Of a stretch of DNA of 64,000 bases, positions 5,360-58,718 are shown piece by piece. The notes under the pieces are model-generated. The model saw only the letters and a program-made list of their open reading frames with translations, ran no database searches and was not told the DNA's origin. Location: NCBI GenBank assembly GCA_016699245.1, contig CP064968.1, positions 704,317 through 768,316 on the forward strand, read 5' to 3'. This DNA is from Candidatus Kaiserbacteria bacterium (lineage in GTDB: Bacteria > Patescibacteriota > Minisyncoccia > Phycocordibacterales > UBA918). The position numbers and the translations under genes are program-made. Position 1 is the stretch's first letter. Every line of letters starts with the position of its first letter.

Positions 5360-5486
5360 AAAATGCTAATTAGTTATTCAAAATATATGGTGAGTATACC
5401 GTACTATAGCCGTAATTCAAGGTTCGGAGAATATAAAACACCGGACTTTGGGCTCTGCCCAAAGTCCGGTGTTTTATATTCTTCTA

Positions 5487-6260
5487 CTACAACTTGGTCA
5501 CAATCTCAGGGCCATTTTCCGTGATTGCAACAGTGTGCTCAAAATGCGCACTTCGTGAACCATCTACCGTAAAGACACTGTATCCGTCACCTTCGTCATC
5601 AAAAATCACTTCTTTACTTCCGATATTTACAATAGGCTCAATTGCAAAGACATTACCGACTTTAATAAGTGGCCCCCTTCCAGCTTTTCCAAAATTAGGA
5701 ATCTGTGGGTCTTCGTGTACTGCATGTCCCACTCCGTGCCCGCACAAGGCTTCCACAATACTGAATCCGCGTGAGTGTACGAAGGTCTCAATCGCGTGAC
5801 TAATGTCACCAATATGATTCCCAGGCTTTGCTTGCTTGATACCGAGCATAAGCGCTTCCTGCGTTGTTGTGATGAGTTTCATAGACTCTGCATCCGTCTT
5901 CCCTACAGGAATAGTAATACCCGAATCCACTATCATTCCTTGGTACCCAATCGTCATATCGAGGTTGATAATATCTCCCTCTTCGAGAATCTCATCTGCA
6001 CGAGGTACACCATGTTGCACGGTATTATTGACCGAGGTACACAACGCTGCAGGGTATGGATCCATTGCAAAAGTGGGTTGGTAGCCGAGCAGTACCGGTT
6101 CAGCACCATAGTCCTCGGCAAGTTTTAGGGCGTAGTCATTGATATCTTCGGTTGAAATGCCAGGCTTCACGTATGTAGCCAATTCCTTGAGTATCTGAGC
6201 GAGCACTTTTCCTCCCGCGCGAAGTCGCTCAATCTCTTCAGGGGTTTTAATAAGTGCCAT
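5487..6260 (-). CDS. map: Methionine aminopeptidase type I
   Basis: 257 aa with a MetAP fold, adjacent to adk as in spc-operon tails. Confidence 0.9.
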   Translation of the reverse strand: MALIKTPEEIERLRAGGKVLAQILKELATYVKPGISTEDINDYALKLAEDYGAEPVLLGYQPTFAMDPYPAALCTSVNNTVQHGVPRADEILEEGDIINLDMTIGYQGMIVDSGITIPVGKTDAESMKLITTTQEALMLGIKQAKPGNHIGDISHAIETFVHSRGFSIVEALCGHGVGHAVHEDPQIPNFGKAGRGPLIKVGNVFAIEPIVNIGSKEVIFDDEGDGYSVFTVDGSRSAHFEHTVAITENGPEIVTKL

Positions 6261-22727: not shown

Positions 22728-23921
22728 TTACGCAACAATCTTCGTAACGATGCCGGCACCGACGGTGCGACCTCCTTCACGAATAGCAAAGTTCTGTTGT
22801 TCCTCAAGTGCTACTGGCGCTACAAGTTTTACCTTGAACTTCGCAGTATCTCCTGGCATAACCATCTCAACGCCTTCGGCAAGTGTTACCTCTCCGGTAA
22901 CGTCTGTAGTACGAACATAGAACTGTGGCTTGTAACCTGTGAAGAATGGTGTGTGACGACCTCCCTCATCCTTTGAAAGTACGAATACTTCTGCTTCAAA
23001 GTCTGTGTGTGGCGTTACTGAATTCTTCGCAGCAAGTACCTGTCCGCGGTGTACATCCTCCTTCTTCACACCACGGATAAGAATACCTGCGTTGTCTCCT
23101 GCCTGTGCTTGATCGAGTTGCTTGTTAAACATTTCAACTCCGGTAACGGTTGTCGCTGCAGTATCCTTGATACCGACAATCTGAACTTCCTCACCTACCT
23201 TTACCTTTCCTCGCTCTACACGACCGGTAACTACCGTACCACGTCCTTCAATAGAGAAGATGTCCTCAATAGGCATAAGGAATGGCTTGTCGAGATCACG
23301 AATAGGGAGTGGGAAGTATGAGTCCATTGCGTTCACAAGTTCGAGTACTTTTTCTCCCCAAGGTCCCTTTGGATCCTCAAGTGCCTTAAGTCCTGATCCC
23401 TTGATAACAGGAGCGTTTGCGCCGTCGTATCCGTTCTTTGTGAGAAGTTCACGAAGTTCTTCCTCAACGAGCATAATCATTTCCTCATCATCCACCATAT
23501 CGCACTTGTTCAAGAATACGATGATGTTTGGTACACCCACCTGCTTTGCAAGAAGAACGTGCTCACGTGTTTGTGGCATCGCTCCGTCTGTTGCAGCAAC
23601 CACGAGAACAGCACCGTCCATCTGTGCGGCACCGGTAATCATGTTCTTAATGTAGTCGGCGTGTCCTGGCGCATCGATGTGTGCGTAGTGACGACTTGGA
23701 GTTTGGTACTCTGAGTGAGAAAGAGAAATAGTAATTCCTCGAGCTTTTTCTTCAGGAGCCTTGTCGATATCATCGACACCCTTAACTGATGCACTGTATC
23801 CCTCACCTTTCAGGTTGAGTACAGTAAGAATCGCAGCGGTAAGCGTGGTCTTTCCATGGTCAACGTGACCAATAGTACCTACGTTTACGTGCGGCTTTGA
23901 ACGATCAAATTCTGCTGCCAT
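22728..23921 (-). CDS. tuf: Elongation factor Tu
   Basis: [22 protein letters not shown] motifs. 397 aa. Confidence 0.97.
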
Positions 23922-24325
23922 AGTATTAGTAACTAACTATTAGATAATAATTCCGCACGTGCGACTCCCTTCGTATAAAACGAATGAAGACTTGCAAGTA
24001 CTCAGAGGAAAGGGCGCGAGAACGCCACCTTACCTCTAGGTGCACACAAGTTGCATGTCAAAAAGAGCAAAAACTCCCTCAACCCATAACCCCAAAGGGT
24101 ATAGGCGCGGTGTCGCAATAGTACAAGAATGAATCTATTTTTGCAAGCGGAAGTCTGACCTCACCATGTTCGACACGTCAAGACTCTTTTGTTCGCGAGA
24201 AAGAGGAATAATAATCTCAACTGAACACTCCTGCGTAGTATATTGACATAGAATACCCTGCATTGTATCGTGTGCCCGTTCCCCAGATAGATAGGGGTGT
24301 TCTTTCAACAACGAGGAGAATTGAA

Positions 24326-24826
24326 ATGAAGAGCCTAAAGTCCACATGCCTTTCGGGTCCATTTTATGGTACCTACAATGGGAAATTGGATTATCCCCTA
24401 TCCGTAGAGGTAAATCTTTGTGATCCCAGTTCGACGGTTGCGTTCCTCAAGAAACGTATGCAGGATAGCCAATTTGTTCATCTCACCCTAAGGACACCGC
24501 AATACGAGTCGCGGCAAGACTTGTTTCTAAACGGTTATTTCCTTGCTGATTTGATATTGTTCGCAGAGGTTAACATGGCGCGAATTAGTGCACACTTTCT
24601 CCCGGCATTAGAAATCAAAGATTTGGGGTGGATAATTACGACGCAGGATAATGACAGTGGTACGTGTCCCGGACTGATTGATTTAGTCATCGGTCACAAA
24701 GAGATTATGGAAAAATACCTTCGTACAGGGAATGACTCACTCATTTCCCCCCGCGTCTTGGAGATTTACTCAGATGCAGCAGTTCGAAGATCTTTGAGGT
24801 CTAAATATTATGATGGGGAGGATTAG
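24326..24826 (+). CDS. Hypothetical protein
   Basis: ORF 24263..24826. Internal ATG at 24326 has a GGAG SD 8 nt upstream. Weak candidate promoter TTGACA-17-TATCGT at 24243-24271. Confidence 0.45.
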   Translation: MKSLKSTCLSGPFYGTYNGKLDYPLSVEVNLCDPSSTVAFLKKRMQDSQFVHLTLRTPQYESRQDLFLNGYFLADLILFAEVNMARISAHFLPALEIKDLGWIITTQDNDSGTCPGLIDLVIGHKEIMEKYLRTGNDSLISPRVLEIYSDAAVRRSLRSKYYDGED

Positions 24827-24908
24827 CCTTCGTGGCTCTATCCGGCAACAATGTTGCCGGATATTTTATATTGGTCTAAAACAGAAATCTATCTGCTATA
24901 CTGCGCGC

Positions 24909-25480
24909 ATGCAACAACTTCTAGAAATAGCCCGAAATGCGGCCCACGAGGCAAGTGAGGCAGTAATCGCCATGCGCGAGGGGGTCACTCATGAAATAAA
25001 AGGGGATGGCTCTCCCGTGACCGCGGCTGATACGCGCGCGCACGACATCATCATGGAACATCTTACTCCCACGGATATTATGATTCTTTCTGAGGAATCT
25101 AACGGTGTTCCTATGCCCTATCCTGAATATCTCTGGGTCATCGACCCTATCGATGGCACCAAGGATTATATGAAAGGAAGCACTGACTTCTGCGTTATGA
25201 TTGCGCTTCTTCAGAATGGCAAACCACTACTCGGCGTTGTGGATGCACCCGCACTCAATACTGTTTTCTCGGTGACTTTTATTTCACCCAAGGAGGGCTT
25301 GGTGAATGGGATGTCTGCGCACCTGAAATTATCTTTCGTGAAGCAGGAGGTGTCGTGAGCGACTGTCTTGGAAACGACATTGCATACGGTAATCCAGAAC
25401 ACCGAATTCCTCATGGCGTACTCTTTGCGCAAAAAAATTGTTATGACGAGGTGCTCAGTGCAGTGAAAATGACAGCATAG
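24909..25480 (+). pseudogene. Inositol monophosphatase/CysQ-family gene with ~75-codon internal deletion and frameshift
   Basis: N-terminal part (frame 1, to ~25268) matches SuhB through ...LWVIDPIDGT...VVDAPALNTVF. The C-terminal part ...DFYFTQGGLGEWDVCAPEIIFREAGGVVSD... is in another frame (to the TAG at 25478-25480). The middle of the fold is missing. Confidence 0.55.
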
Positions 25481-25572
25481 TATGCAACAAAAACATGCAT
25501 ACTCCTAAAAATATGCTATTGTACCTACAGAGAAAGCCCTAGATTCCTAGTGCTACGGACAAGGAGTTTGAC

Positions 25573-26043
25573 ATGAGTACACAACAAAACGTGCCCGCTC
25601 TCAATCGGTCACTATGGTCTCTGTGTGGATTATTGTTTTTTGGCAGTGTAACGTATCATCTGTTTTTGAAATACATTGGCCCAGGGCTGAATGAAATCAT
25701 AACCATCGACCCTAAAACAGTCACCCTATCCCACCTCGGATTGATATTTGCACCTATCATCGGATATCTTTTGATAACGGGGAATATCTGTTTAGCAATC
25801 AATGTCGTCAAGCCACTCAAGGTGTGGGACGACATGGGTCTCGTCTGGCACCTCACCATGGGCTTTGCAATGGGTCTCGGTGCATGCCTTATCTGTGGTC
25901 TTGTATTTGGCGTCCTTGGGGGTGCTGTCGAAGAACTTGTCTATGGTCTTGTTGGGGGTCTGCTCGGGAGTTCCCTTGCAGGCCTCGGTTTAGGTCTTGT
26001 TGGAAGTCTTTTCGGGGGTATCTTCAAGGAACTGACACCATAA
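25573..26043 (+). CDS. Hypothetical membrane protein with Gly-rich C-terminal TM segment
   Basis: 156 aa, several hydrophobic helices, GxxxG-rich tail. Confidence 0.5.
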   Translation: MSTQQNVPALNRSLWSLCGLLFFGSVTYHLFLKYIGPGLNEIITIDPKTVTLSHLGLIFAPIIGYLLITGNICLAINVVKPLKVWDDMGLVWHLTMGFAMGLGACLICGLVFGVLGGAVEELVYGLVGGLLGSSLAGLGLGLVGSLFGGIFKELTP

Positions 26044-26218
26044 TCGCCTCATAGATGCAAGGAAAATCTCCTTGCATACGTGAGGCGATTTTCTATTTAA
26101 AAATATCAAGTTGAAATGTTTAAAAATCTACCAGTTTAAATATTTACACATACCACTTCTTATAGTATTGTCTCACTGTTCCCGTTATTTGAAACGGGTG
26201 TTTTTTGAGGAGTAGACC

Positions 26219-26695
26219 ATGTCAGCAGACAAAGTTAAGGTTGTATCATCCCCTGTCATTCCTATCGGTGGGATGCGGGGGCGAGGGATTGTGGTTACCA
26301 TGACGAGATCTCGTTCAAATCGTTTTGCACTCATCAAAGAGGAGTTTGGAAACGGAGACCATATAGCACTAGCCACGGAAGGTGGCGTCAAATGGGCAGA
26401 CCACCCAGATGTGTGCGGGGTTGATCTTCTCCTTCAATTCATGAATATGAAGCGCGCGAATCCTGGATTCATGAATGGAGCATTCTGGAAAATCTTCCCT
26501 GAATATGACAACATCCCACTTTCAGAATTTGGCCTCCAACCCTGCTCGAACGATGCAATTTCTGGAACACGCGACGACATTCATGCCCACATTGTCTTAG
26601 CGCGCAAAGAGGTCTGGGATAGCGGAGCAATTCCTCGCTTCGTTGACCCGATTGACCCAGTACCTTTAGCAGAACGAAAACCGCGGGAAAAATAA
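26219..26695 (+). CDS. Hypothetical protein
   Basis: 158-aa ORF followed by a bidirectional terminator. Confidence 0.45.
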   Translation: MSADKVKVVSSPVIPIGGMRGRGIVVTMTRSRSNRFALIKEEFGNGDHIALATEGGVKWADHPDVCGVDLLLQFMNMKRANPGFMNGAFWKIFPEYDNIPLSEFGLQPCSNDAISGTRDDIHAHIVLARKEVWDSGAIPRFVDPIDPVPLAERKPREK

Positions 26696-26713
26696 TTATT
26701 TTCCGTAATACCC

Positions 26714-26742
26714 AAAAAGGTGCGCACCCGCGCACCTTTTTT
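26714..26742. terminator. Bidirectional intrinsic terminator
   Basis: aaaaaggtgcgcacccgcgcacctttttt. Confidence 0.7.
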
Positions 26743-26763
26743 ATATCTTTTCAAACACACACA

Positions 26764-27024
26764 TCACTGCACCAACGTGAATCGTGTATGCCTCTCTCCC
26801 GAGCCTACCGGCCACTCCATAGTATCGTTCCACTCACGCACCGGCCGAGTAAAAAGATCGGCATCAGGATTTTCATACAACGGCTTATAAACCACCATCC
26901 ACTCATCATCATTTGAGTGGAGAGCTCTCTCTACGACCTCGTATGAATCACCTTTGTAGTGTCGATATACCTCTCCGATTTTTGGTGCATTTTCGGGAAT
27001 ATTTCCTTTCATAGTGTCGTACAT
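26764..27024 (-). CDS. DUF1653-family small protein
   Basis: VYRHYKGDSYEVVERALHSNDDEWMVVYKPLY motif (G.VY.HYKG...Y.V). Confidence 0.7.
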   Translation of the reverse strand: MYDTMKGNIPENAPKIGEVYRHYKGDSYEVVERALHSNDDEWMVVYKPLYENPDADLFTRPVREWNDTMEWPVGSGERHTRFTLVQ

Positions 27025-27034
27025 AGTAGCATAT

Positions 27035-27066
27035 AAAACCGCGCGCCTTTTGGGCGCGCGGTTTTA
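27035..27066 (-). terminator. Intrinsic terminator after fusA
   Basis: aaaaccgcgcgccttttgggcgcgcggtttt. Confidence 0.7.
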
Positions 27067-27234
27067 TATTTCCTTTTATCTTACGCTTCCTCTACATCTT
27101 TGAGGGTCAAGTTGCTAAGTAAAATATTTATTTCATAAATATTTATACTAAGCACTTCCTCCCCAGCCTCGCGGTTTTGCCTCCTTTGTAGTCGGCAAAA
27201 CATCGCTACGGCTCGTAAAGGATTCCGAAGAGGC

Positions 27235-29412
27235 CTATGCCTCTTCGTCTATATCCTTTACGCCACGCATTTTCTTAATCTCCATGGCGACGTTTGGTGG
27301 GACTACGTCGTAGTGGTCAAATTCCATGGTCATAGATGCGCGGCCTTCGGTCATAGAACGAAGGGTCGTGGTGTATCCAAACATTTCGGAGAGCGGTACC
27401 TTTGCGTGTACCACCTTTGCCATACCACGGTCATCCATTCCTTCCACCAGTCCACGCTTTGAACTAATGTTTCCGTTCACATCTCCCATGAATTTTTCAG
27501 GAGTGGTTACCTCAACCTTCATGATAGGTTCGAGAAGTACGGCACCTGCGCTCTTTGCAGCCTCTTTGAAGGCGTGAATTGCAGCGAGTTTAAAGGCAAT
27601 TTCTGAAGAGTCCACTTCGTGGTAACTACCATCGTAGAGTTCGACAGAAATATCTTCCATCTTGTATCCTGCCACGAATCCACGACCCATAGCCTCCTTA
27701 CATCCCTTCATTACTGCAGGAATGTACTCTCCAGGAATCACACCTCCCTTAATGCTGTTTACAAATTCGAAGTGGTCTTCACGCGTAACATTCTTTGCGA
27801 GTGACTTTCCTTCAGCGAGTTGAAGTGGTTCCATTGGCTTAATGCGAATCTTCACATGGCCATATTGCCCCTTACCTCCTGACTGCTTAATGTATTTATA
27901 CTCTGCCTCAGCTGGTCGCTGAATGGTTTCGCGGTACGCCACCTGTGGCTTGCCTACGTTTGCCTCTACACCGAATTCACGCTTCATGCGGTCAACGATA
28001 ATTTCGAGATGGAGTTCTCCCATACCCGCAATAATAGTTTCGAAAGTTTCTTCATCAGTAGACACTTTGAAAGTTGGGTCTTCGTCTGAAAGCTTCTTCA
28101 TTGCCATACCCATCTTCTCTTGGTCGTTCTTGGTTTTTGGTTCGATACGCATTGCTACCACTGGCTCGGGGAACGTAATAGTTTCGAGAATGATAGGCTT
28201 ATCTTCTGCACAGAGTGTATGTGAAGTCTTCACATCCTTAATTCCCACACCAGCAGCAATTTCACCCGCAAACACTTCCTCAATTTCTGTTCGCTTGTCT
28301 GCCTGCAGGCGCACGATGCGTCCGAGTCGTTCCTTTTCACCTGTTGATGCGTTGTAAAGGTAACTTCCTGCCTTGATTGTACCTGAGTACACACGGAAGA
28401 AGGTAAGCTGTCCCACAAATGGGTCAGTTTGGAGTTTAAATGCAAGTGCGCAAAAAGGTTCTTCATCTGATGCACTACGAAACTCCTCGGCATCAGTATC
28501 TGGATTCGTCCCCTTTACTGGTGGCAGATCTACTGGTGACGGGAGGTAGTCCACTACAGCGTCGAGAACTCGTTGCACACCAATGTTCTTGAGTGCAGAA
28601 CCCGTCATCACAGGGAAGATTGCGTTTGCAATCACTGCCTTTCTCAGTGTCTTCTGGAGTTCCTCGTATGAAGGAATCATCCCTTCGAGGTATGCACTCA
28701 TTTGCTCATCATCGTGTTCGACGATGCGCTCAACAAGTTCTGCATGATATTTCTCTGCGGTCTCTTTGAGTTCCGCAGGTATCTCATGTTCAACCACCTT
28801 CATTCCCATCTCTCCTTCAAAGGTATACGCCTTCATCTTCAGAAGGTCGATAGTACCTGCGAGGTTTTCTTCTGAGCCCCAAGGGATTTGATAGCGAACT
28901 GCCTTTGGTGAAAGGCGGTTAAGAATAGATGCGTACGACCGCTCGAAATCTGCTCCTGTGCGATCCATCTTGTTGATGAAACAAATTCGGGGAACTCCGG
29001 CCTCATCGGCATACCGCCAGTTCGTCTCTGACTGTGGCTCTACTCCCGCAACACCATCAAACACCACAATCGCACCGTCGAGTACACGCATTGAGCGCTT
29101 TACCTCTGCGGTAAAGTCGATGTGTCCAGGAGTATCGATGATGTTAAAGGTGTACTTGAGTTCAGGATCGATACGGTCTGCGATAAGTGACGGTGTCCAG
29201 TTACAAGAAATCGCCGCTGCAGTAATGGTAATACCGCGTTCACGCTCTTGTTCCATCCAGTCGGTCACTGTTGCACCATCGTGCACCTCACCGATTTTGT
29301 GGCTCATACCAGTGTAGAAAAGCACACGCTCTGAAGTCGTGGTCTTTCCGGCATCAACGTGCGCAACAATACCGAAGTTACGAAGTTTATGTAATGGGAA
29401 TGCTCGTGCCAT
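27235..29412 (-). CDS. fusA: Elongation factor G
   Basis: 725 aa. AHVDAGKTT G-domain through the C-terminal domains. Confidence 0.95.
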   Translation of the reverse strand: MARAFPLHKLRNFGIVAHVDAGKTTTSERVLFYTGMSHKIGEVHDGATVTDWMEQERERGITITAAAISCNWTPSLIADRIDPELKYTFNIIDTPGHIDFTAEVKRSMRVLDGAIVVFDGVAGVEPQSETNWRYADEAGVPRICFINKMDRTGADFERSYASILNRLSPKAVRYQIPWGSEENLAGTIDLLKMKAYTFEGEMGMKVVEHEIPAELKETAEKYHAELVERIVEHDDEQMSAYLEGMIPSYEELQKTLRKAVIANAIFPVMTGSALKNIGVQRVLDAVVDYLPSPVDLPPVKGTNPDTDAEEFRSASDEEPFCALAFKLQTDPFVGQLTFFRVYSGTIKAGSYLYNASTGEKERLGRIVRLQADKRTEIEEVFAGEIAAGVGIKDVKTSHTLCAEDKPIILETITFPEPVVAMRIEPKTKNDQEKMGMAMKKLSDEDPTFKVSTDEETFETIIAGMGELHLEIIVDRMKREFGVEANVGKPQVAYRETIQRPAEAEYKYIKQSGGKGQYGHVKIRIKPMEPLQLAEGKSLAKNVTREDHFEFVNSIKGGVIPGEYIPAVMKGCKEAMGRGFVAGYKMEDISVELYDGSYHEVDSSEIAFKLAAIHAFKEAAKSAGAVLLEPIMKVEVTTPEKFMGDVNGNISSKRGLVEGMDDRGMAKVVHAKVPLSEMFGYTTTLRSMTEGRASMTMEFDHYDVVPPNVAMEIKKMRGVKDIDEEA

Positions 29413-29699
29413 ATAAATAATCTAAAATACTAAATAATAAAACCAAAATGAAAAATAAATTTTGATTGGTTTCCCCTTCCTGAGGGCGAATAAATCGCCT
29501 GAGAAAAGAAAAGCCCACGGGGGCCTATTGGCGCCTACTATACGATATATGACACACGAGAGCAATAGGATGATTTCAAAAAAATGATTTTATATTCAAA
29601 CACGTGAATATCAATTTCATCAGCATTTTGCTTTTCACTAAAAGTATGTCATAATAATGTTCGGTAGCACATCATCAACTTTTAATGAAGGAGATTGCC

Positions 29700-30101
29700 A
29701 TGAGGCGCTTTTTTGTTTTTCTCGCTCTCGTAATGAGCACAACATCTGCGTATGCACAAGACAACCCACACGATTCACCGTGGGAACAATATGGGCAAGA
29801 TGCTTGGGTGCTCAATATCGAGGGTATCGGAAGGAATGAAAGTATCGTTCTGATACGAAACCCACAAGGGACACACTTCACTGCGACTGCAGTATGTTCA
29901 GACGGTGTTTATTCCGAAGTATATTCCTGGAGCCAAGGGCACACCCATGCAAAAGGCGTAGACTGCACGGGGAAACGCGTAAGTCGTGCTGCGACGTACT
30001 GGGAAGGATGGATTCATCCACTTCCTCATCAAACTCCCAAAACCATACCAACTCCCACACCAAAACGTCGCGTGCTCGCCGCTGTTCCAAATACACACTG
30101 A
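29700..30101 (+). CDS. Small secreted protein (Sec signal peptide)
   Basis: ATG at 29700 with a GGAG SD. MRRFFVFLALVMSTTSAYAQD signal. Terminator follows. Confidence 0.55.
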   Translation: MRRFFVFLALVMSTTSAYAQDNPHDSPWEQYGQDAWVLNIEGIGRNESIVLIRNPQGTHFTATAVCSDGVYSEVYSWSQGHTHAKGVDCTGKRVSRAATYWEGWIHPLPHQTPKTIPTPTPKRRVLAAVPNTH

Positions 30102-30111
30102 ATGATGTGTG

Positions 30112-30150
30112 GTCCGTCGCAAGCACAGCTTGCGACGGTTTTATTTTTTT
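30112..30150 (+). terminator. Intrinsic terminator
   Basis: tccgtcgcaagcacagcttgcgacggttttattttttt. Confidence 0.7.
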
Positions 30151-30169
30151 CGTACGTTATACTGTATAC

Positions 30170-31198
30170 ATGAAGTATCGTTCACTCATTCTTGTATACC
30201 TACTCTTCCTCCCTTTCTTTTCACATGCGAATACTGAGAACGCGGGGTTCGTGCAAGGACTTTGGTATTCATCACAACCAGTTTTTGCTGAGGTCCCCAC
30301 ACGCATTTACATTGCACTACGCAACAATACGGGGCATGACCTCACGGGCACCGTGCGTTTTACCGACAACGAAAAGCGTATTGGTTCTTTTGAGGTGAGT
30401 GCGCTCGAGGGACGTCTTGTAGAGGCATGGGTAGACTGGATTCCGACAAAAGGAGAGCATGTCATCACCGCAACCGTAAGCGATGCAGTACTTCATGTAA
30501 TTGGGGGAAACACGGAGTCTGCTGATATTACCGGTATCACGGCAAGTGATACCCTCATCGTGGATTATGACACTGATCGTGATGGCATAGGTAACACCGA
30601 AGACACCGATGACGACAACGATTCTGTGTCTGATACTGAAGAAACCGAACGAGGGAGTAATCCGCTTGTCAGTAACCCAAAATCTGTTTCTGAAGAAACT
30701 GAAAGTTCTAAAGACTCTGAAAGTCCGAATACTGAAGTACTCACTGCAGATACTCGTACAGAGACAAAAAAATCTACTCCTTCGCGTGGAGGACTCGAAC
30801 AGTATATTGAAAACGAAAAAGTAGATACACTCTTTGGAAGTGTCACCGAAAAAATTGAAAATGCGAAAACAGCGCTCGATACATACCGTGAGAGACGGGA
30901 CACAACACTCGCGGAAAACACCTCACCAACTGAGTTAGAACATCCAACCGAAATGAAATTGGGAACACTCACTGAAAACGCCACCATTACACGCACACAG
31001 ATAGACACCGAAAAGGGTTTTCTTAAATCCTTTGTTGCCGGTGTTGCAGCACTTCTTTCAAGCCTTTGGACACTGGTACTTTTTTCAACTTCAAAAATTC
31101 TAAATTATCCCGCAATACTCGAGGTCCTCCTACTTCTGGGAATTCTTGTATTTTTCTATCGTGTTGCGCGGCGATTAGGTCGTCGTAATCGGTATTAG
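30170..31198 (+). CDS. Secreted, C-terminally membrane-anchored acidic protein with TSP3-like calcium-binding Asp motif
   Basis: ATG at 30170 (MKYRSLILVYLLFLPFFSHA signal). DTDRDGIGNTEDTDDDNDS motif. C-terminal TM plus RRLGRRNRY. Confidence 0.55.
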   Translation: MKYRSLILVYLLFLPFFSHANTENAGFVQGLWYSSQPVFAEVPTRIYIALRNNTGHDLTGTVRFTDNEKRIGSFEVSALEGRLVEAWVDWIPTKGEHVITATVSDAVLHVIGGNTESADITGITASDTLIVDYDTDRDGIGNTEDTDDDNDSVSDTEETERGSNPLVSNPKSVSEETESSKDSESPNTEVLTADTRTETKKSTPSRGGLEQYIENEKVDTLFGSVTEKIENAKTALDTYRERRDTTLAENTSPTELEHPTEMKLGTLTENATITRTQIDTEKGFLKSFVAGVAALLSSLWTLVLFSTSKILNYPAILEVLLLLGILVFFYRVARRLGRRNRY

Positions 31199-31204
31199 TG
31201 CATC

Positions 31205-31236
31205 AAAAAACCGCGGCACAGTGCGCCGCGGTAATT
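31205..31236. terminator. Bidirectional intrinsic terminator
   Basis: aaaaaaccgcggcacagtgcgccgcggt. Confidence 0.6.
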
Positions 31237-31238
31237 CT

Positions 31239-31859
31239 TCATTCCTGCTTCACCCATACACGTACTGACGGCTGTTTATCGGTACCCCGATAAATATACC
31301 CTTGTGATGGTGGTGTGATACCCCTTTCCTTAAAGGATATATACATAATTCTATCTCGAATTGTAGGTGATGCAGGATACTCCACTTTTGTGCAATCAGG
31401 TAAGACAATAAGGCTCGACCATCGTGAAAAAATAAGCCCTCGCCTGCTAAAGCCTGCCGACGCAAATATCGTTGACAGCATACCCGTACACTCAGTAAAA
31501 AGTACTGGCTTAAAGATATCTTCATCGAGTCGTGGGAACAGTCCAATAGGATGTGCTGCAAAAAACAATCCCTTCGGCTTCAATGTACGTATGAGTTCTG
31601 CTTCGATACCATGTGTACCGCCATCAAAGAGATTTAAGCCATTTAATGTCACCGCATCAAGACTCTGATCGGGAACATTGAATGCGCTGTACAGTGCAAA
31701 TATCTTACGAATTCCTGCATGTGTAGCGTCACCATTCCACAACCCCTTAAGCCGTCTATCCCCACACAAGTAGAGAAATCTCAGTTTTGGGTTATACGAC
31801 TTCAAGTTCTTCACGAATGATGTATTACCTGCGCCAATGTCCAAAAGTACTTTAGTCAT
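31239..31859 (-). CDS. Class I SAM-dependent methyltransferase
   Basis: VLLDIGAGNTSF motif I. 206 aa. Confidence 0.55.
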   Translation of the reverse strand: MTKVLLDIGAGNTSFVKNLKSYNPKLRFLYLCGDRRLKGLWNGDATHAGIRKIFALYSAFNVPDQSLDAVTLNGLNLFDGGTHGIEAELIRTLKPKGLFFAAHPIGLFPRLDEDIFKPVLFTECTGMLSTIFASAGFSRRGLIFSRWSSLIVLPDCTKVEYPASPTIRDRIMYISFKERGITPPSQGYIYRGTDKQPSVRVWVKQE

Positions 31860-31989
31860 GATGTCCTCCTCATAGGATTATCTACACGAGAATATACATT
31901 ACAAACTTGAAATAGCAAGAGTATACCTAACAGACACAGAAAACCCCGCGCAAAGTGCATGACTTTCTTAAACAGACAAACGCTTTATT

Positions 31990-32313
31990 TTACCCCACTA
32001 CTTTAAATCCAAGTTCTGCAACCGCCGCTGCTATTTCTCTTTTCACTAACTCAAGATTATCTGCATACACAATAATTTCCTGTTGCGATATGTTGTCACG
32101 CACGACAAGCATCAAACATGCACTCTCGAGAGAGATTTTTACCCGACGCAGTCCCTTTGTGGTAGGAAGTCCTGACTTGATATATCCGAGCACTATTTTT
32201 TTCACGAAAGGATTCCTTTCCGCAATATCCACAACCAGCCCCGCAGCAGGAACGACCGTCGTGTGTGAACCTGTTACCTTTCCTCCGGCGCGAGCGCCTT
32301 TTGGTTTTGCCAT
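31990..32313 (-). CDS. Hypothetical small protein
   Basis: 107-aa ORF 6 nt downstream of the GH15-like gene. Confidence 0.45.
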   Translation of the reverse strand: MAKPKGARAGGKVTGSHTTVVPAAGLVVDIAERNPFVKKIVLGYIKSGLPTTKGLRRVKISLESACLMLVVRDNISQQEIIVYADNLELVKREIAAAVAELGFKVVG

Positions 32314-32319
32314 ATAAAA

Positions 32320-33372
32320 CTACTGCATCTCCTCTACCTTCTTGAGTGCAATGACATACATACTTTCTGCCCAGCCGAGAGGAGTGTTCTCATTGGGGTT
32401 ATGTGTATGGGAGTAGTAGAGTTCGGGAATCTTGCCGTTTTCGGTTATCGTACTCTTTGCATGCATGAGATACCATTCCGCCTTTGCTTTGTCTCCACGC
32501 TCTGCATAAATAATCGCAAGCCATGAAAGTCCCATACACCATTCCGCCTCCTCACTATGTCCATCAACATTGGCGTTGTAGTAGCGGTCGTTTTTGTAGC
32601 GTATTACCCCCTTATCTTTGGTGAGGTGATATTCCACATTGCGTAAAATAGCCACAGTCTCGTCTTCAGTTGCCTCGCGGAATGGGTACACTATCGAAAG
32701 AAGCGCGAGATCAGCAAACTTTTCTGCTGATTCTCGTGGTAAGAGTGCACGAAGTGCTGTCTCTCCCTTTTGAATGACACCTTCGGGCACCGTGAGCCAT
32801 GGCACCTGTGCTGCTTTTTTAAGTGCTGCATTTACCGCTGCAATCGAAGACGCATGTATCTCCATACCCTCCTCCCAAATACCGTTATCCAAGTCGTGCC
32901 AATATTCTATGCGCACAAGGTAGTCCACAATCTTTTGCACGAGGGCTCGCTCTGCGTCAGTTGCTACAATACTTTCTCCGCGCATCTCGAGATGCATAAT
33001 TAAATCAAGGACTTCGCCCACTGCATCATTTTGGCGATTACCCCACTCCTCCCAATATTCTTCAAAAGACTCTGGATGAAAACGTGCATGAATGTATTGC
33101 CATGTCTCATATGGCTTGTGCTCAATAGCCCAGTCAATTTTTTCTGCGTGCTTCATAAAAAGCGCAAGGAGTGCACGCGCCGTATCTTTTACTGTTTCAA
33201 TATCACCCAATTCCAAAAAACAAAGTACCGTGAAGTAGTTGTCACGCAGCCACGCTTTATCATAGCCAGTGTGAACATTCGATGCAGACGCCGTATAGAC
33301 GCCTGTTGGTTTCCGGAGCGCACGTATCTCATTCACGTGCGCCTGAATCTCTGCTTCGAAATCAATAGTCAT
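32320..33372 (-). CDS. Glycoside hydrolase family 15-like (glucoamylase-type) protein
   Basis: GYDKAWLRDNYF (the W-x-R-D hallmark) and acidic EEAEW region. 350 aa. Confidence 0.5.
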   Translation of the reverse strand: MTIDFEAEIQAHVNEIRALRKPTGVYTASASNVHTGYDKAWLRDNYFTVLCFLELGDIETVKDTARALLALFMKHAEKIDWAIEHKPYETWQYIHARFHPESFEEYWEEWGNRQNDAVGEVLDLIMHLEMRGESIVATDAERALVQKIVDYLVRIEYWHDLDNGIWEEGMEIHASSIAAVNAALKKAAQVPWLTVPEGVIQKGETALRALLPRESAEKFADLALLSIVYPFREATEDETVAILRNVEYHLTKDKGVIRYKNDRYYNANVDGHSEEAEWCMGLSWLAIIYAERGDKAKAEWYLMHAKSTITENGKIPELYYSHTHNPNENTPLGWAESMYVIALKKVEEMQ

Positions 33373-33386
33373 ACGGAAAAGAAGAA

Positions 33387-33662
33387 CTATGCAGCAAGTG
33401 AACGCATGCGATTATCAAATTCATTTTGTCCGCGAATCATTAGTACATTCCGTGTGAGTTCTTTTGCGAGATACCGATTTTTGTTATCATCCACAAGTTT
33501 GTCTATATGTGCTTCTAGTACTGCACACTGCTCGTCGGCGTCCATGGTTTCAAAATCAGAAATACCCGCAATAATTTCCTTGGCTTTTTCAGGTGCCTGC
33601 TCCTTCAATTCTCGCCACATCTGAGTATTTTCTGCACTTTCAACACGTGATATTCCCTCCAT
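33387..33662 (-). CDS. Hypothetical small acidic protein
   Basis: 91-aa ORF, first gene of the accessory operon. Confidence 0.4.
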   Translation of the reverse strand: MEGISRVESAENTQMWRELKEQAPEKAKEIIAGISDFETMDADEQCAVLEAHIDKLVDDNKNRYLAKELTRNVLMIRGQNEFDNRMRSLAA

Positions 33663-33795
33663 AGAAACACATTATCCTAATATACCGATAATTGTATCAT
33701 GCCCGTGAATGAGTACACAAAATGCTTATAACCATCTAATGGTGATTCAAAAAGATTGAATCTGGTAGATGTTATTTTCTAGTGCAGTACAAGGC

Positions 33796-33968
33796 AAAAG
33801 CCCGAAATTTTTGTGAGCCGTACTCAACGTACGGTGAACAAAAATTTCGGGCTTTTAACGCAGTAAGGAAATGGAGTCGCTACAGAGTCTGGAGACGTCT
33901 GTTTTTTCTCCGGGGGGAGAAAAAACAGACGGACTCGAAAAATATACGGGCTCTGCCCGTTATTTTTC
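33796..33968. repeat. Three consecutive perfect hairpins (18-bp, 15-bp and 6-bp stems) downstream of rpsG
   Basis: aaagcccgaaatttttgt...acaaaaatttcgggcttt, gtctgttttttctcc-gggg-ggagaaaaaacagac, and acgggctctgcccgt plus T-run (rpsG terminator). Confidence 0.7.
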
Positions 33969-33970
33969 GG

Positions 33971-34444
33971 TCACCAAGCGAAGTGGGCGAAGGCTCGGTT
34001 AGCCTCTGCCATGCGGTGGGTATCGTCCTTCTTCTTTACGGCTGCTCCTTCTCCCTTTGCAGCGAGCATTATTTCTGATGAAAGTGACTTGAACATTGGC
34101 TTACCTTTCTGTCCGCGCGCGGCAGTAATAATCCAACGAAGTGCAAGTGCGAGACGTCGCTCGGGGCGAACCTCACGAGGTACCTGATAGTTTGCTCCAC
34201 CGACACGGCGTGAGCGCACCTCCATTTGTGGTCCTGCATTACGAATAGCAGTTTCAAATATTTCTACAGGGTCTCCGCCTCCTTCCTTTGCGTTCTTAAT
34301 TACTTCAAATGCTGCGTATACGATTTTGCGTGCAGTCTCCTTCTGTCCGTTCACCATGATGTAGTTCACGAGTCGTGAGACGTTTACTGAATCATATCGT
34401 TCGTCCTTGCCGAGCGGTGCTCGTCGTTTAATTGGTCGTCGCAT
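33971..34444 (-). CDS. rpsG: 30S ribosomal protein S7
   Basis: S7 family. Confidence 0.95.
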   Translation of the reverse strand: MRRPIKRRAPLGKDERYDSVNVSRLVNYIMVNGQKETARKIVYAAFEVIKNAKEGGGDPVEIFETAIRNAGPQMEVRSRRVGGANYQVPREVRPERRLALALRWIITAARGQKGKPMFKSLSSEIMLAAKGEGAAVKKKDDTHRMAEANRAFAHFAW

Positions 34445-34619
34445 ATTTTTTCCTATCTATTATCTATAGCGAGTATAGTCTATTAATTAATTTGTGCAGT
34501 TTTGTAAATTGTTAAAATTATTCTGGATGCGCGAAGCGACTAAGTTTTGGAGGAAGCGGTACAACAGTACCGTGACCGAGAAAACTGACGTCGCGACAAA
34601 GCAGACGGGATGATTTTAA

Positions 34620-35036
34620 CTATTTACCTGCTTTTGGGCGCTTTGCTCCGTACCGTGATCGCGACACTCGTCGCTTATCAACGCCGGTTGCATCATACTT
34701 TCCGCGTACAATGGTGTAGTTCACACCAATATCCTTTACGCGACCCCCACGTACGAGTACCACCGAGTGCTCCTGGAGTGTGTGTCCTTCACCAGGAATG
34801 TAGGCAGTAATTTCCTGGTGATTGGTAAGACGTACACGAGCAATTTTACGAATAGCCGAGTTTGGCTTTCGAGGAGTCTTGGTAGTAACACGAGTACAGA
34901 CACCACGCTTAAAGGGTGAACTATACTCATTTGGACGATTCATAATGGTATTAAAACCAGAACGAAGCGCTCCTTTCTTTGTTCGGGTTGGTTGGTCCTT
35001 TCGTCCCTTCTTTGTTAATTGATTGATTGTTGCCAT
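34620..35036 (-). CDS. rpsL: 30S ribosomal protein S12
   Basis: [14 protein letters not shown]... S12. Confidence 0.95.
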
Positions 35037-58620: not shown

Positions 58621-58718
58621 AAGGAACAAAAAAATCCCTAGGTGTGCTTCGCACATCTGGGGATTTTTTCTGTTCGTTGGGGTGGTATTCTCACTATTTT
58701 CGTGTACACTATTCCGTT

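Follow-up and report, generated by a model that had tools for sequence, protein, structure and literature searches.

A probably ancient and flexible break between rpsG and fusA in the str operon of Candidatus Kaiserbacteria-like Paceibacteria

The canonical str operon of Escherichia coli and Bacillus subtilis has the gene order rpsL-rpsG-fusA-tuf, and in E. coli an S7-dependent translational operator in the rpsL-rpsG intercistronic region controls the expression of rpsG and fusA. It is a general concept of bacterial genomics that conserved core genes can flank flexible regions or hot spots of integration. We analysed a 64,000-nucleotide stretch of a Candidatus Kaiserbacteria genome (contig CP064968.1; called the window below) in which rpsL, rpsG, fusA and tuf keep the canonical order and orientation, with rpsJ after tuf. 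However, 4,558 bp separate the minus-strand genes rpsG and fusA, and exactly this interval (29413-33970) is filled by six genes, two of them antisense, which we name A to F; B belongs to glycoside hydrolase family 15 (GH15). The window further differs from the canonical operon in a 3.3-kb separation of fusA from tuf, in a predicted promoter and leader that fusA has for itself, and in structured RNA after both rpsL and rpsG. Our reading, to which we would give roughly a three in four chance, is that we see here the most compact form of a break in the str operon that is old, vertically inherited, flexible and common to a Ca. Kaiserbacteria-like clade of Paceibacteria (Patescibacteria, or Candidate Phyla Radiation, CPR). 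A literature search found no published description of a split str operon.

The genes were called from the open reading frame (ORF) listing together with Pfam and NCBIfam profile searches. Every element described in an earlier, sequence-only reading of this DNA was present at the positions it had given, and its view that DNA had been inserted between rpsG and fusA was right, with the bacterial ancestor as the reference. Relatives were sampled in two ways. One sample was centred on fusA and comprised 80 loci from species-representative genomes, in which rpsL, rpsG, tuf, rpsJ and the six gap genes were placed by tblastn. The other was centred on GH15 and comprised 85 GH15-bearing loci from independent genomes and metagenomes, 80 of them from a scan of metagenome contigs. 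The fusA loci closest to the window were from metagenome-assembled genomes (MAGs) of Kaiserbacteria and Paceibacteria.

We observed that all six genes were present in the 6.0-kb rpsG-fusA gap of the relative L001, whose EF-G is 95% identical. In L002 (EF-G 89% identical) the gap was 2.2 kb and held only C and E, while in L003 and L004 (82% and 75%) no rpsG was found in the 2.8 and 5.4 kb upstream of fusA. In 64 Paceibacteria loci rpsG was located; it lay less than 200 nt from fusA in 35 of them, the gap measured 200-500 nt in 9 and 0.5-2 kb in 15, and the other 5 loci had gaps of at least 2 kb. Since more than half of these loci (35/64) keep the two genes within 200 nt but 20/64 have them at least 500 nt apart, the adjacency is ancestral and the junction prone to breakage, breaks here being common in the class. 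The fusA-tuf gap was below 200 nt in only 5 of 54 Paceibacteria loci and at least 2 kb in 22 of them.

The GH15-centred sample gave a consistent arrangement. All three relatives whose GH15 context was looked up showed rpsL-rpsG, then a small ORF and GH15, and then fusA. The rpsL-rpsG pair lay on the same strand, 0.5-4.4 kb upstream of GH15, in 29 of the 31 loci with at least 5 kb of upstream flank, and fusA lay 4.4-9.7 kb downstream in 14 of the 19 loci with 10 kb of downstream flank. Complete rpsG-fusA gaps of the GH15 relatives measured 6.0-13.9 kb, with the 4.56 kb of the window as the shortest. The synteny of the genes around the gap (ComEC, SodA, MBL, L28, M50, S12 and S7) was equally kept in the relatives. 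The sequence-only reading had taken the interval for an accessory island and had named a gene order conserved across the lineage, with no hallmarks of acquisition, as what would speak against this; that is largely what we observed.

The ORFs of the gaps in the related loci were clustered, and 17 gaps were complete. These 17 held 100 gene clusters, of which 65 were singletons. The recurrent genes were GH15 (17/17), an ABC-F ATPase (14/17), glutamate dehydrogenase (9/17), a Cys-rich protein of 190 residues (9/17) and the family of small ORFs to which A belongs (9/17). Other repeat residents of the gap in relatives were NrtR-like Nudix regulators, GIY-YIG proteins, GST and DUF2103. We propose that the rpsG-fusA junction in this clade would have become a flexible chromosomal region of 5-14 kb. 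Its backbone would consist of a small ORF with a single-domain GH15, an antisense membrane protein with TSP3 repeats and mostly also the ABC-F protein and glutamate dehydrogenase, and the gene content around this backbone would turn over quickly. The backbone genes of the relatives (ABC-F, glutamate dehydrogenase, the Cys-rich 190-residue protein, GIY-YIG and others) were not found in the 64-kb window at E<1e-4, and C, D, E and F belong, within the region, to a narrower sub-lineage (L001, L081). The window holds a reduced variant of a flexible region that has long been resident inside the str operon.

The clade gap resembles the known hot spots in its fixed flanks (rpsG and fusA), its length of 2.2-13.9 kb and the fast turnover of its content, and in the GIY-YIG, Fic, MazG and helicase-S24 genes that it holds in some relatives. 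Unlike the usual hot spots, it lies inside a ribosomal operon, has a long-lived backbone, lacks an integrase, a tRNA and att-like repeats, and is native in composition in the window. An ABC-F-type double ATPase with an ABC_tran_Xtn linker, together with glutamate dehydrogenase, was seen in 41 related loci (L083, 12887-14371; L156, 6467-7945). Fic, a helicase with an S24 peptidase domain, MazG-like and GIY-YIG proteins were seen in the gaps of L165 (12912-16402), L128 and L158-L163; the junction also appears to take accessory cargo in other lineages.

We further examined whether the interval itself looks foreign. The GC content of the interval was 0.443 versus 0.449, its tetranucleotide L1 distance was 0.139 versus a window-wide 0.161 +/- 0.019 (the 11th percentile of windows of the same size), and the GC at third codon positions of the gap genes fell inside the range of the neighbouring genes. 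A tRNA scan of the whole 64-kb window found none, Pfam and NCBIfam gave no match to an integrase, transposase or recombinase in the interval, and a repeat search at its borders gave only short direct or inverted repeats at chance level. The pairwise distances of GH15 followed those of S7 (Spearman 0.85) and those of S12, S7 and M50 combined (Mantel r=0.73, 0/999 permutations). Relative to the window, the median identity was 68% for GH15, 75% for S7, 81% for S12, 58% for M50 and 49% for MBL. The lineage-wide synteny, the co-divergence of GH15, the native composition and the lack of mobility hallmarks together lead us to conclude that the interval is an old, vertically inherited arrangement and not a recent import. 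In a CPR lineage, a gene adjacency that is among the best conserved in bacteria has thus given way to a stable break and a flexible region of long standing. Since this break is stable and clade-wide, an 'island inside a ribosomal operon' is not automatically foreign DNA, and the main interest of the locus lies in this lesson, that such an 'island' can be ancient, and in the RNA element described below. The novelty lies in a str operon whose split is stable, shared by the clade and filled with genes, and whose fusA is autonomous, along with an RNA element absent from Rfam; the GH15 family is already known, and has been reported in Patescibacteria, and the interval is otherwise ordinary in gene content.

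The joint arrival of the six genes by horizontal transfer, as a recent genomic island inserted between rpsG and fusA, is very improbable in our estimate. The interruption of a near-universal adjacency, the terminators that the interval has of its own, the differences in gap content between relatives and the narrow occurrence of D (14 homologues only) and F (seen only in L001 among the fetched loci) would all suit such an event. The composition, the co-divergence with S7 and S12 and the lack of any tRNA, integrase, transposase or boundary repeat do not, and GH15 and E are found in the gap across a clade whose EF-G has diverged to ~75% identity, with the window carrying a reduced and not an expanded version. 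With GH15 in the gap in 29/31 loci, the notion of an acquired module was not supported, although the accessory character itself survives in part, in the quick turnover of the other gap genes. A chimeric assembly join that placed unrelated genes between rpsG and fusA is hardly credible: the source is indeed a MAG, but dozens of independent assemblies (NCBI, JGI, ENA and Logan) show this arrangement too, and the 95%-identical L001 has the same six genes.

Several points nevertheless weigh against an old, vertically inherited break. The relatives were sampled around fusA and GH15 only. The gap of L002 is without GH15, so the backbone is not invariant. With 65 of 100 clusters being singletons, genes have been gained in the region, possibly by transfer, and D and F may be recent additions. 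The transcription units, the promoter and the terminators are predictions from sequence and conservation only. Finally, the solved structures closest in sequence to B are the GHL domains of phosphorylase kinase (PhK), whose context is non-catalytic.

The arrangement of signals suggests four transcription units. The first would consist of rpsL (ribosomal protein S12; 34620-35036, minus strand; an ORF with 78-99% identity to the S12 of related loci), as the first gene of the str unit, and rpsG (ribosomal protein S7; 33971-34444, minus strand; PF00177, 188 bits; TIGR01029, 184 bits), each followed by a structured RNA or terminator element anchored at its stop codon. The second would run from a start region of its own through A, the GH15 gene, the DUF2103-like gene C and D to a bidirectional terminator. 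F and E, convergent to the second, would form the third. The fourth would be fusA (EF-G; 27235-29412, minus strand; TIGR00484, 1031 bits) with its own promoter and a leader containing a hairpin and U-tract, both conserved in the clade.

The putative fusA promoter and leader occupy 29501-29565 on the minus strand, with a -35 box TTGCTC (29565-29560), a 17-nt spacer and a -10 box TATAGT (29542-29537). The leader hairpin and U-tract (29526-29501, minus strand) are a terminator-like match. The pattern TTGC-N17-(CG)TATAGT, with a small GC hairpin and then a U-rich tract downstream, was conserved in 19 aligned fusA upstream regions of the clade. The four closest relatives (L001-L004) have the promoter motif, and beyond the clade it turned up in L022 and L050 alone, which is why we do not regard it as a general feature of Paceibacteria. 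The hairpin and U-tract could act as an attenuator. Having its own conserved promoter, as predicted, fusA would no longer depend on transcription from rpsL, and with the gene-filled gaps and the RNA elements this makes it probable that the str unit is no longer one operon. Another motif shared by the relatives, TACATATATAAGTA, stands between a Shine-Dalgarno-like GGAGG and the start codon of fusA. Inteins had been considered as a cause of the long EF-G matches that some loci gave; fusA is of normal length there, and these matches are probably joined alignments of EF-G and the EF-Tu G-domain.

The 236 nt after rpsG are strongly structured, with a folding energy of -98.9 kcal/mol versus -46.6 +/- 4.5 for shuffles (z = -11.7). 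Three strong hairpins had been noticed here in the sequence-only reading, and we found them at 33975-33932, 33931-33896 and 33856-33796. Hairpin 1 (33932-33975, minus strand) begins at the stop codon of rpsG, and a short T-run follows its inner stem; its counterparts in L001 and L166 show compensatory changes. Hairpin 2 (33896-33931, minus strand) is a perfect 16-bp stem with a 4-nt loop, and its equivalents in the same two loci have the same position and a different sequence. These two are extra, lineage-specific hairpins common to the window, L001 and L166. The third hairpin, P2 (33796-33856, with 28-nt arms), belongs to a recurrent element that we call R1.

In the relatives, inverted-repeat searches revealed a long hairpin at a fixed offset after rpsG, conserved in sequence including its internal mismatches. 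A folded alignment of 20 examples gave R1 as a structure of ~125 nt. The stop codon marks the start of its outer helix, and in a second helical segment a pyrimidine mismatch is conserved. Conservation extends to the junction strands (5' CUUCGUUG; 3' CGCCUCG ... CAU), and the long terminator-like hairpin is built of an A-tract, a GC stem, an internal loop, an apical G(U/G)AC stem and a U-tract. In the 20-sequence alignment compensatory changes occurred in 23 of 32 pairs, and 95.8% of the cells were paired, as compared with 73% for shuffles and 39-53% when the partners were slid. Among 76 distinct matches all 32 pairs covaried and 93.4% of the cells were paired, a figure that leans towards the model, since that alignment was fitted to it. 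The outer helix opens with the stop codon as its first triplet in ~30 distinct copies, with covariation between TAA/TTA and TAG/CTA.

A covariance model of R1 was built, and the window and all loci were searched with it by cmsearch. This gave 78 non-overlapping matches over all loci, of which 33 began at the stop codon of rpsG and 18 at that of rpsL, with 4 after fusA, 2 after tuf and 1 after rpsJ. The remaining ones were tandem extra copies or were displaced, as in the window. Copies of R1 lie, among many others, in L020 (9107-9234, 12150-12272, 17339-17465 and 18375-18500) and L121 (6014-6139, 6781-6904 and 6912-7036), and some loci have two to three copies in tandem. In the window, the R1 core with its junction sequences and the P2 hairpin (33785-33868, minus strand; 47.4 bits, E=1e-8) sits ~100 nt away from the rpsG stop codon, displaced by hairpins 1 and 2. 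A degenerate copy follows rpsL (34501-34625, minus strand; 30 bits, E=1.5e-4 with filters off), where it fills an unusually long rpsL-rpsG spacer from the rpsL stop codon onwards, with the outer helix TAAATAGTTAAAATCA / TAATTTTAACAATTTA; a copy right behind rpsL is found in 18 related loci. Rfam 15 gave no match at gathering score in the window, and a permissive Rfam scan of 33600-34700 (E up to 10) gave only chance-level matches to miRNA-like hairpins.

R1 resembles the S7 operator of E. coli in being a structured RNA in the rpsL-rpsG spacer, with a further copy in the region after rpsG; in E. coli these are the sites of S7 control over rpsG and fusA. However, it has no sequence or Rfam similarity to that operator, begins at the upstream stop codon, holds a terminator-like hairpin, and in some relatives also follows fusA, tuf or rpsJ. 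A tentative interpretation, which we consider possible and rather doubtful in its full form, is that the hairpins after rpsG are more than terminators and that R1 is an undescribed cis-acting RNA whose outer helix sequesters the stop codon of the translation gene before it. It would serve either as an operator responsive to a ribosomal protein (e.g. S7) or as a module for processing and stabilisation, by which the str operon is divided into parts under separate control. Through its recurrence at precisely these junctions, R1 may also have provided a recombination substrate for the insertion hot spots at rpsG/fusA and fusA/tuf. The roles of a terminating, processing or stabilising module between cistrons, of a ribosomal protein operator and of a promoter of recombination are hypotheses. 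R1 and the fusA promoter and leader offer handles on translation-factor expression in organisms that have not yet been grown. The P2-type hairpin was also considered as a dispersed repeat in the window; only generic, terminator-like partial matches were found (58629-58669 and 5422-5489), and this was rejected. These two terminator hairpins share the P2 design of A-tract, GC stem, small internal loop, apical stem and U-tract, which looks like the general style of intrinsic terminators in this genome.

Protein B (32320-33372, minus strand; 350 residues) matched the GH15 profile PF00723 with 71.5 bits (cutoff 22) over residues 19-189, and its C-terminal half gave weak matches to the NCBIfam GH15 models TIGR01577 and NF041084. 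The AlphaFold2 (AF2) model was all-helical (pLDDT 80, pTM 0.86), and Foldseek placed it with the (alpha/alpha)6-barrels, at TM 0.75-0.79 to 5z3a, 7c25 and the GHL domain of 8jfk. The motifs WLRD, WEE, PELY and PLGW are invariant, and E167 (in WEE) and E317 (in PELY) were kept in 32 homologues. These two residues align with E198 and E355 of the 5z3 chains. If an N-terminal offset of 20 residues, such as a tag, is assumed, they correspond to E178 and E335, the glutamates altered in the mutants 5z3c (E178A) and 5z3e (E335A). No signal peptide, membrane segment or hydrophobic segment was found in B, nor in A, C or D. We infer that B is a cytoplasmic, single-domain GH15 protein with both catalytic glutamates intact, predicted from its motifs and model to be a catalytically competent exo-alpha-glucosidase type of enzyme. 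Most likely it would free glucose from alpha-glucans or oligosaccharides for glycolysis and fermentative metabolism. Its single-domain, cytoplasmic nature and its intact glutamates point to sugar catabolism rather than to surface glycans.

Surveys of Patescibacteria assign GH15 generically to 'amylose' (PMC9868632, PMC5581439), which fits this role, and our literature search on GH15 in Patescibacteria gave only such generic mentions of 'amylose degradation'. B has more than 3,400 homologues, and the top 120 are all ~350 residues long and 69-93% identical. The constraint on B is intermediate, between that on S7 and that on its non-ribosomal neighbours (the M50 peptidase and the MBL-fold protein). 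A strongly conserved, single-domain GH15 protein is part of the core gene set in these minimal-genome bacteria, and it is a target for tests of sugar use.

Among characterized proteins, the isomaltose glucohydrolase of Kribbella flavida (GH15; 5z3a, 5z3c and 5z3e) resembles B in being a single domain without the N-terminal beta-sandwich, in its Foldseek TM of 0.75-0.77 over the whole protein, and in the alignment of WLRD, WEE, PE and PLxW, both catalytic glutamates included. It differs in length (~385 residues, against 350 for B), and identity is only ~20%, so that its substrate specificity is not transferable. The best match among solved structures by sequence and by fold (TM 0.79) is the GHL domain of the eukaryotic PhK alpha and beta subunits (8jfk); by sequence these subunits scored E=4e-12, versus 1.5e-3 for isomaltose glucohydrolase, and many B homologues are labelled 'phosphorylase kinase alpha/beta subunit' at JGI. 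Unlike B, whose domain stands alone, the PhK subunits have more than 1000 residues, extra domains and a regulatory role. PhK alpha has WER where B keeps WEE, and there is no kinase partner near B.

Immediately upstream of GH15 lies A (33387-33662, minus strand), an acidic, cytoplasmic protein of 91 residues (isoelectric point, pI, 4.8) that had no match in Pfam, NCBIfam or relaxed Pfam. The slot directly upstream of GH15 is taken either by the A family (c3, ~108 residues; 33 loci) or by an unrelated protein (c4, ~147 residues; 32 other loci), as in L081-L084, L092, L097 and L121. The two were compared as possible distant homologues and are treated as unrelated (hhalign probability 5.6%). That A may be a partner of GH15 is speculation.

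Protein C (31990-32313, minus strand) is a basic protein of 107 residues that passed the DUF2103 profile test (PF09876, 28.2 bits versus a gathering cutoff of 22.4). It recurs in the gap of L001, L002, L081, L085, L089 and L165. The 'metal-binding' label of DUF2103 is doubtful for C, since C has a single Cys.

Protein D (31239-31859, minus strand; 206 residues) matched no family above cutoff, the methyltransferase profile Methyltransf_11 giving 14 bits (E=0.079) against a cutoff of 21.2. Only 14 homologues were found in 5.8 billion proteins; LDIGAG is invariant among them, and 3 of the 14 have a precomputed PF08241 match. D was present in only 5 loci of the related set. Its AF2 model (pLDDT 88) has fewer helices than the canonical class I fold. 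In the Foldseek search all of the top 50 matches were S-adenosylmethionine (SAM) methyltransferases, with a best E of 1.6e-5 and a TM of only 0.33-0.48. We consider it plausible that D is a methyltransferase-like protein of a rare family with a divergent class-I fold, and go no further than this. The four-gene operon of the sequence-only reading (a small acidic protein, GH15, a small protein and a methyltransferase) is present, with GH15 confirmed by PF00723 and the methyltransferase plausible at the level of fold only. The domain searches it had suggested for the small proteins placed C in a family and returned none for A and nothing significant for F.

Proteins E and F are encoded on the plus strand, convergent to the operon and with terminator-like sites of their own, as had been described. 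E (30170-31198; 342 residues) is acidic (pI 4.7) and has a signal-peptide-like N-terminus, an Ig-like region, an acidic linker and two hydrophobic or membrane segments at the C-terminus; we take it, on these predicted features, to be an envelope protein with a C-terminal anchor. The TSP3-like Ca-binding motif ascribed to it was found twice, as the DxDxDGxxDxxD-type motifs DTDRDGIGNTED (residues 134-145) and DDDNDSVSDTEE (residues 147-158). E itself scored 12.3 bits (E=0.14) against PF02412, under the cutoff of 25, while about a third of those listed among its 311 homologues carry PF18884 (TSP3_bac), the homologues in L165 and L166 carrying it weakly. A Ca. Kaiserbacteria MAG encodes the identical protein (IPH92_03695, 100%). 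E lies antisense in the rpsG-fusA gap of L001, L002, L081, L083, L165 and L166, also in gaps without GH15, where its homologues are 46-56% identical (55% in L165 and 46% in L166), and it adjoins GH15 in L081, L083, L085, L086 and L092.

F (29685-30101, with a likely start at the ATG at 29700) is a small secreted protein with a signal peptide MRRFFVFLALVMSTTSAYA and two Cys. It matched nothing significantly in NCBIfam or relaxed Pfam, and of the fetched loci only L001 showed a homologue (30% identity), its distribution beyond these not having been searched. A terminator-like hairpin between F and E (30114-30138, plus strand) has an 11-bp stem with 8 GC pairs followed by TTTTATTTTT. The putative bidirectional terminator common to the convergent D and E (31210-31232) has a 10-bp and an 8-bp GC-rich stem, with a T-run on the minus-strand side. 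Terminator-like sites in the region numbered 22 versus 8.1 expected.

The sequence-only reading had seen in the interval a module for the cell surface or its glycans. In such a module GH15, the methyltransferase-like protein and the two secreted proteins would jointly build or remodel an envelope glycan. The six genes are physically clustered, a glycosidase, a methyltransferase-like fold and surface proteins would make a fitting set, and E stands next to GH15 in several relatives, but we find this unlikely. Neither signal peptides nor membrane segments were found in A to D, D is confined to 5 loci, and a Pfam search gave no glycosyltransferase, flippase or sugar-nucleotide gene. Most loci have GH15 without E, and L002, L165 and L166 have E without GH15. 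Since GH15 and E occur independently, and the cytoplasmic and envelope sets converge across a bidirectional terminator, a single surface or glycan module is not supported; E and F would rather be envelope proteins unrelated to GH15.

Another possibility is that the GH15-like protein is kept in the str locus by co-regulation with, or action on, the translation apparatus, together with the ABC-F protein of the relatives. The ABC-F family includes ribosome-binding factors, and an ABC-F ATPase is found in most complete gaps (14/17). The stable position of GH15 between rpsG and fusA, its high conservation (a median of 68% against 75% for S7) and the PhK subunits as best sequence matches in the PDB would also agree with such a role. 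We nevertheless think it quite unlikely. Both catalytic residues and every signature motif of GH15 are intact and unvarying, as would be expected of an enzyme, and structured RNA and terminators after rpsG part GH15 from the ribosomal genes. Since the neighbourhood from ComEC to S7 is equally syntenic, general conservation of synteny is enough to explain the linkage.

The second break of the str unit in the window, which the sequence-only reading did not mention, lies between fusA and tuf (22728-23921); these are 3.3 kb apart (23922-27234). The profile search placed a DUF1653 gene in this interval (26764-27024, minus strand). Four plus-strand ORFs were also found there, at 24263-26695, and two of these have homologues at the same place in L001.

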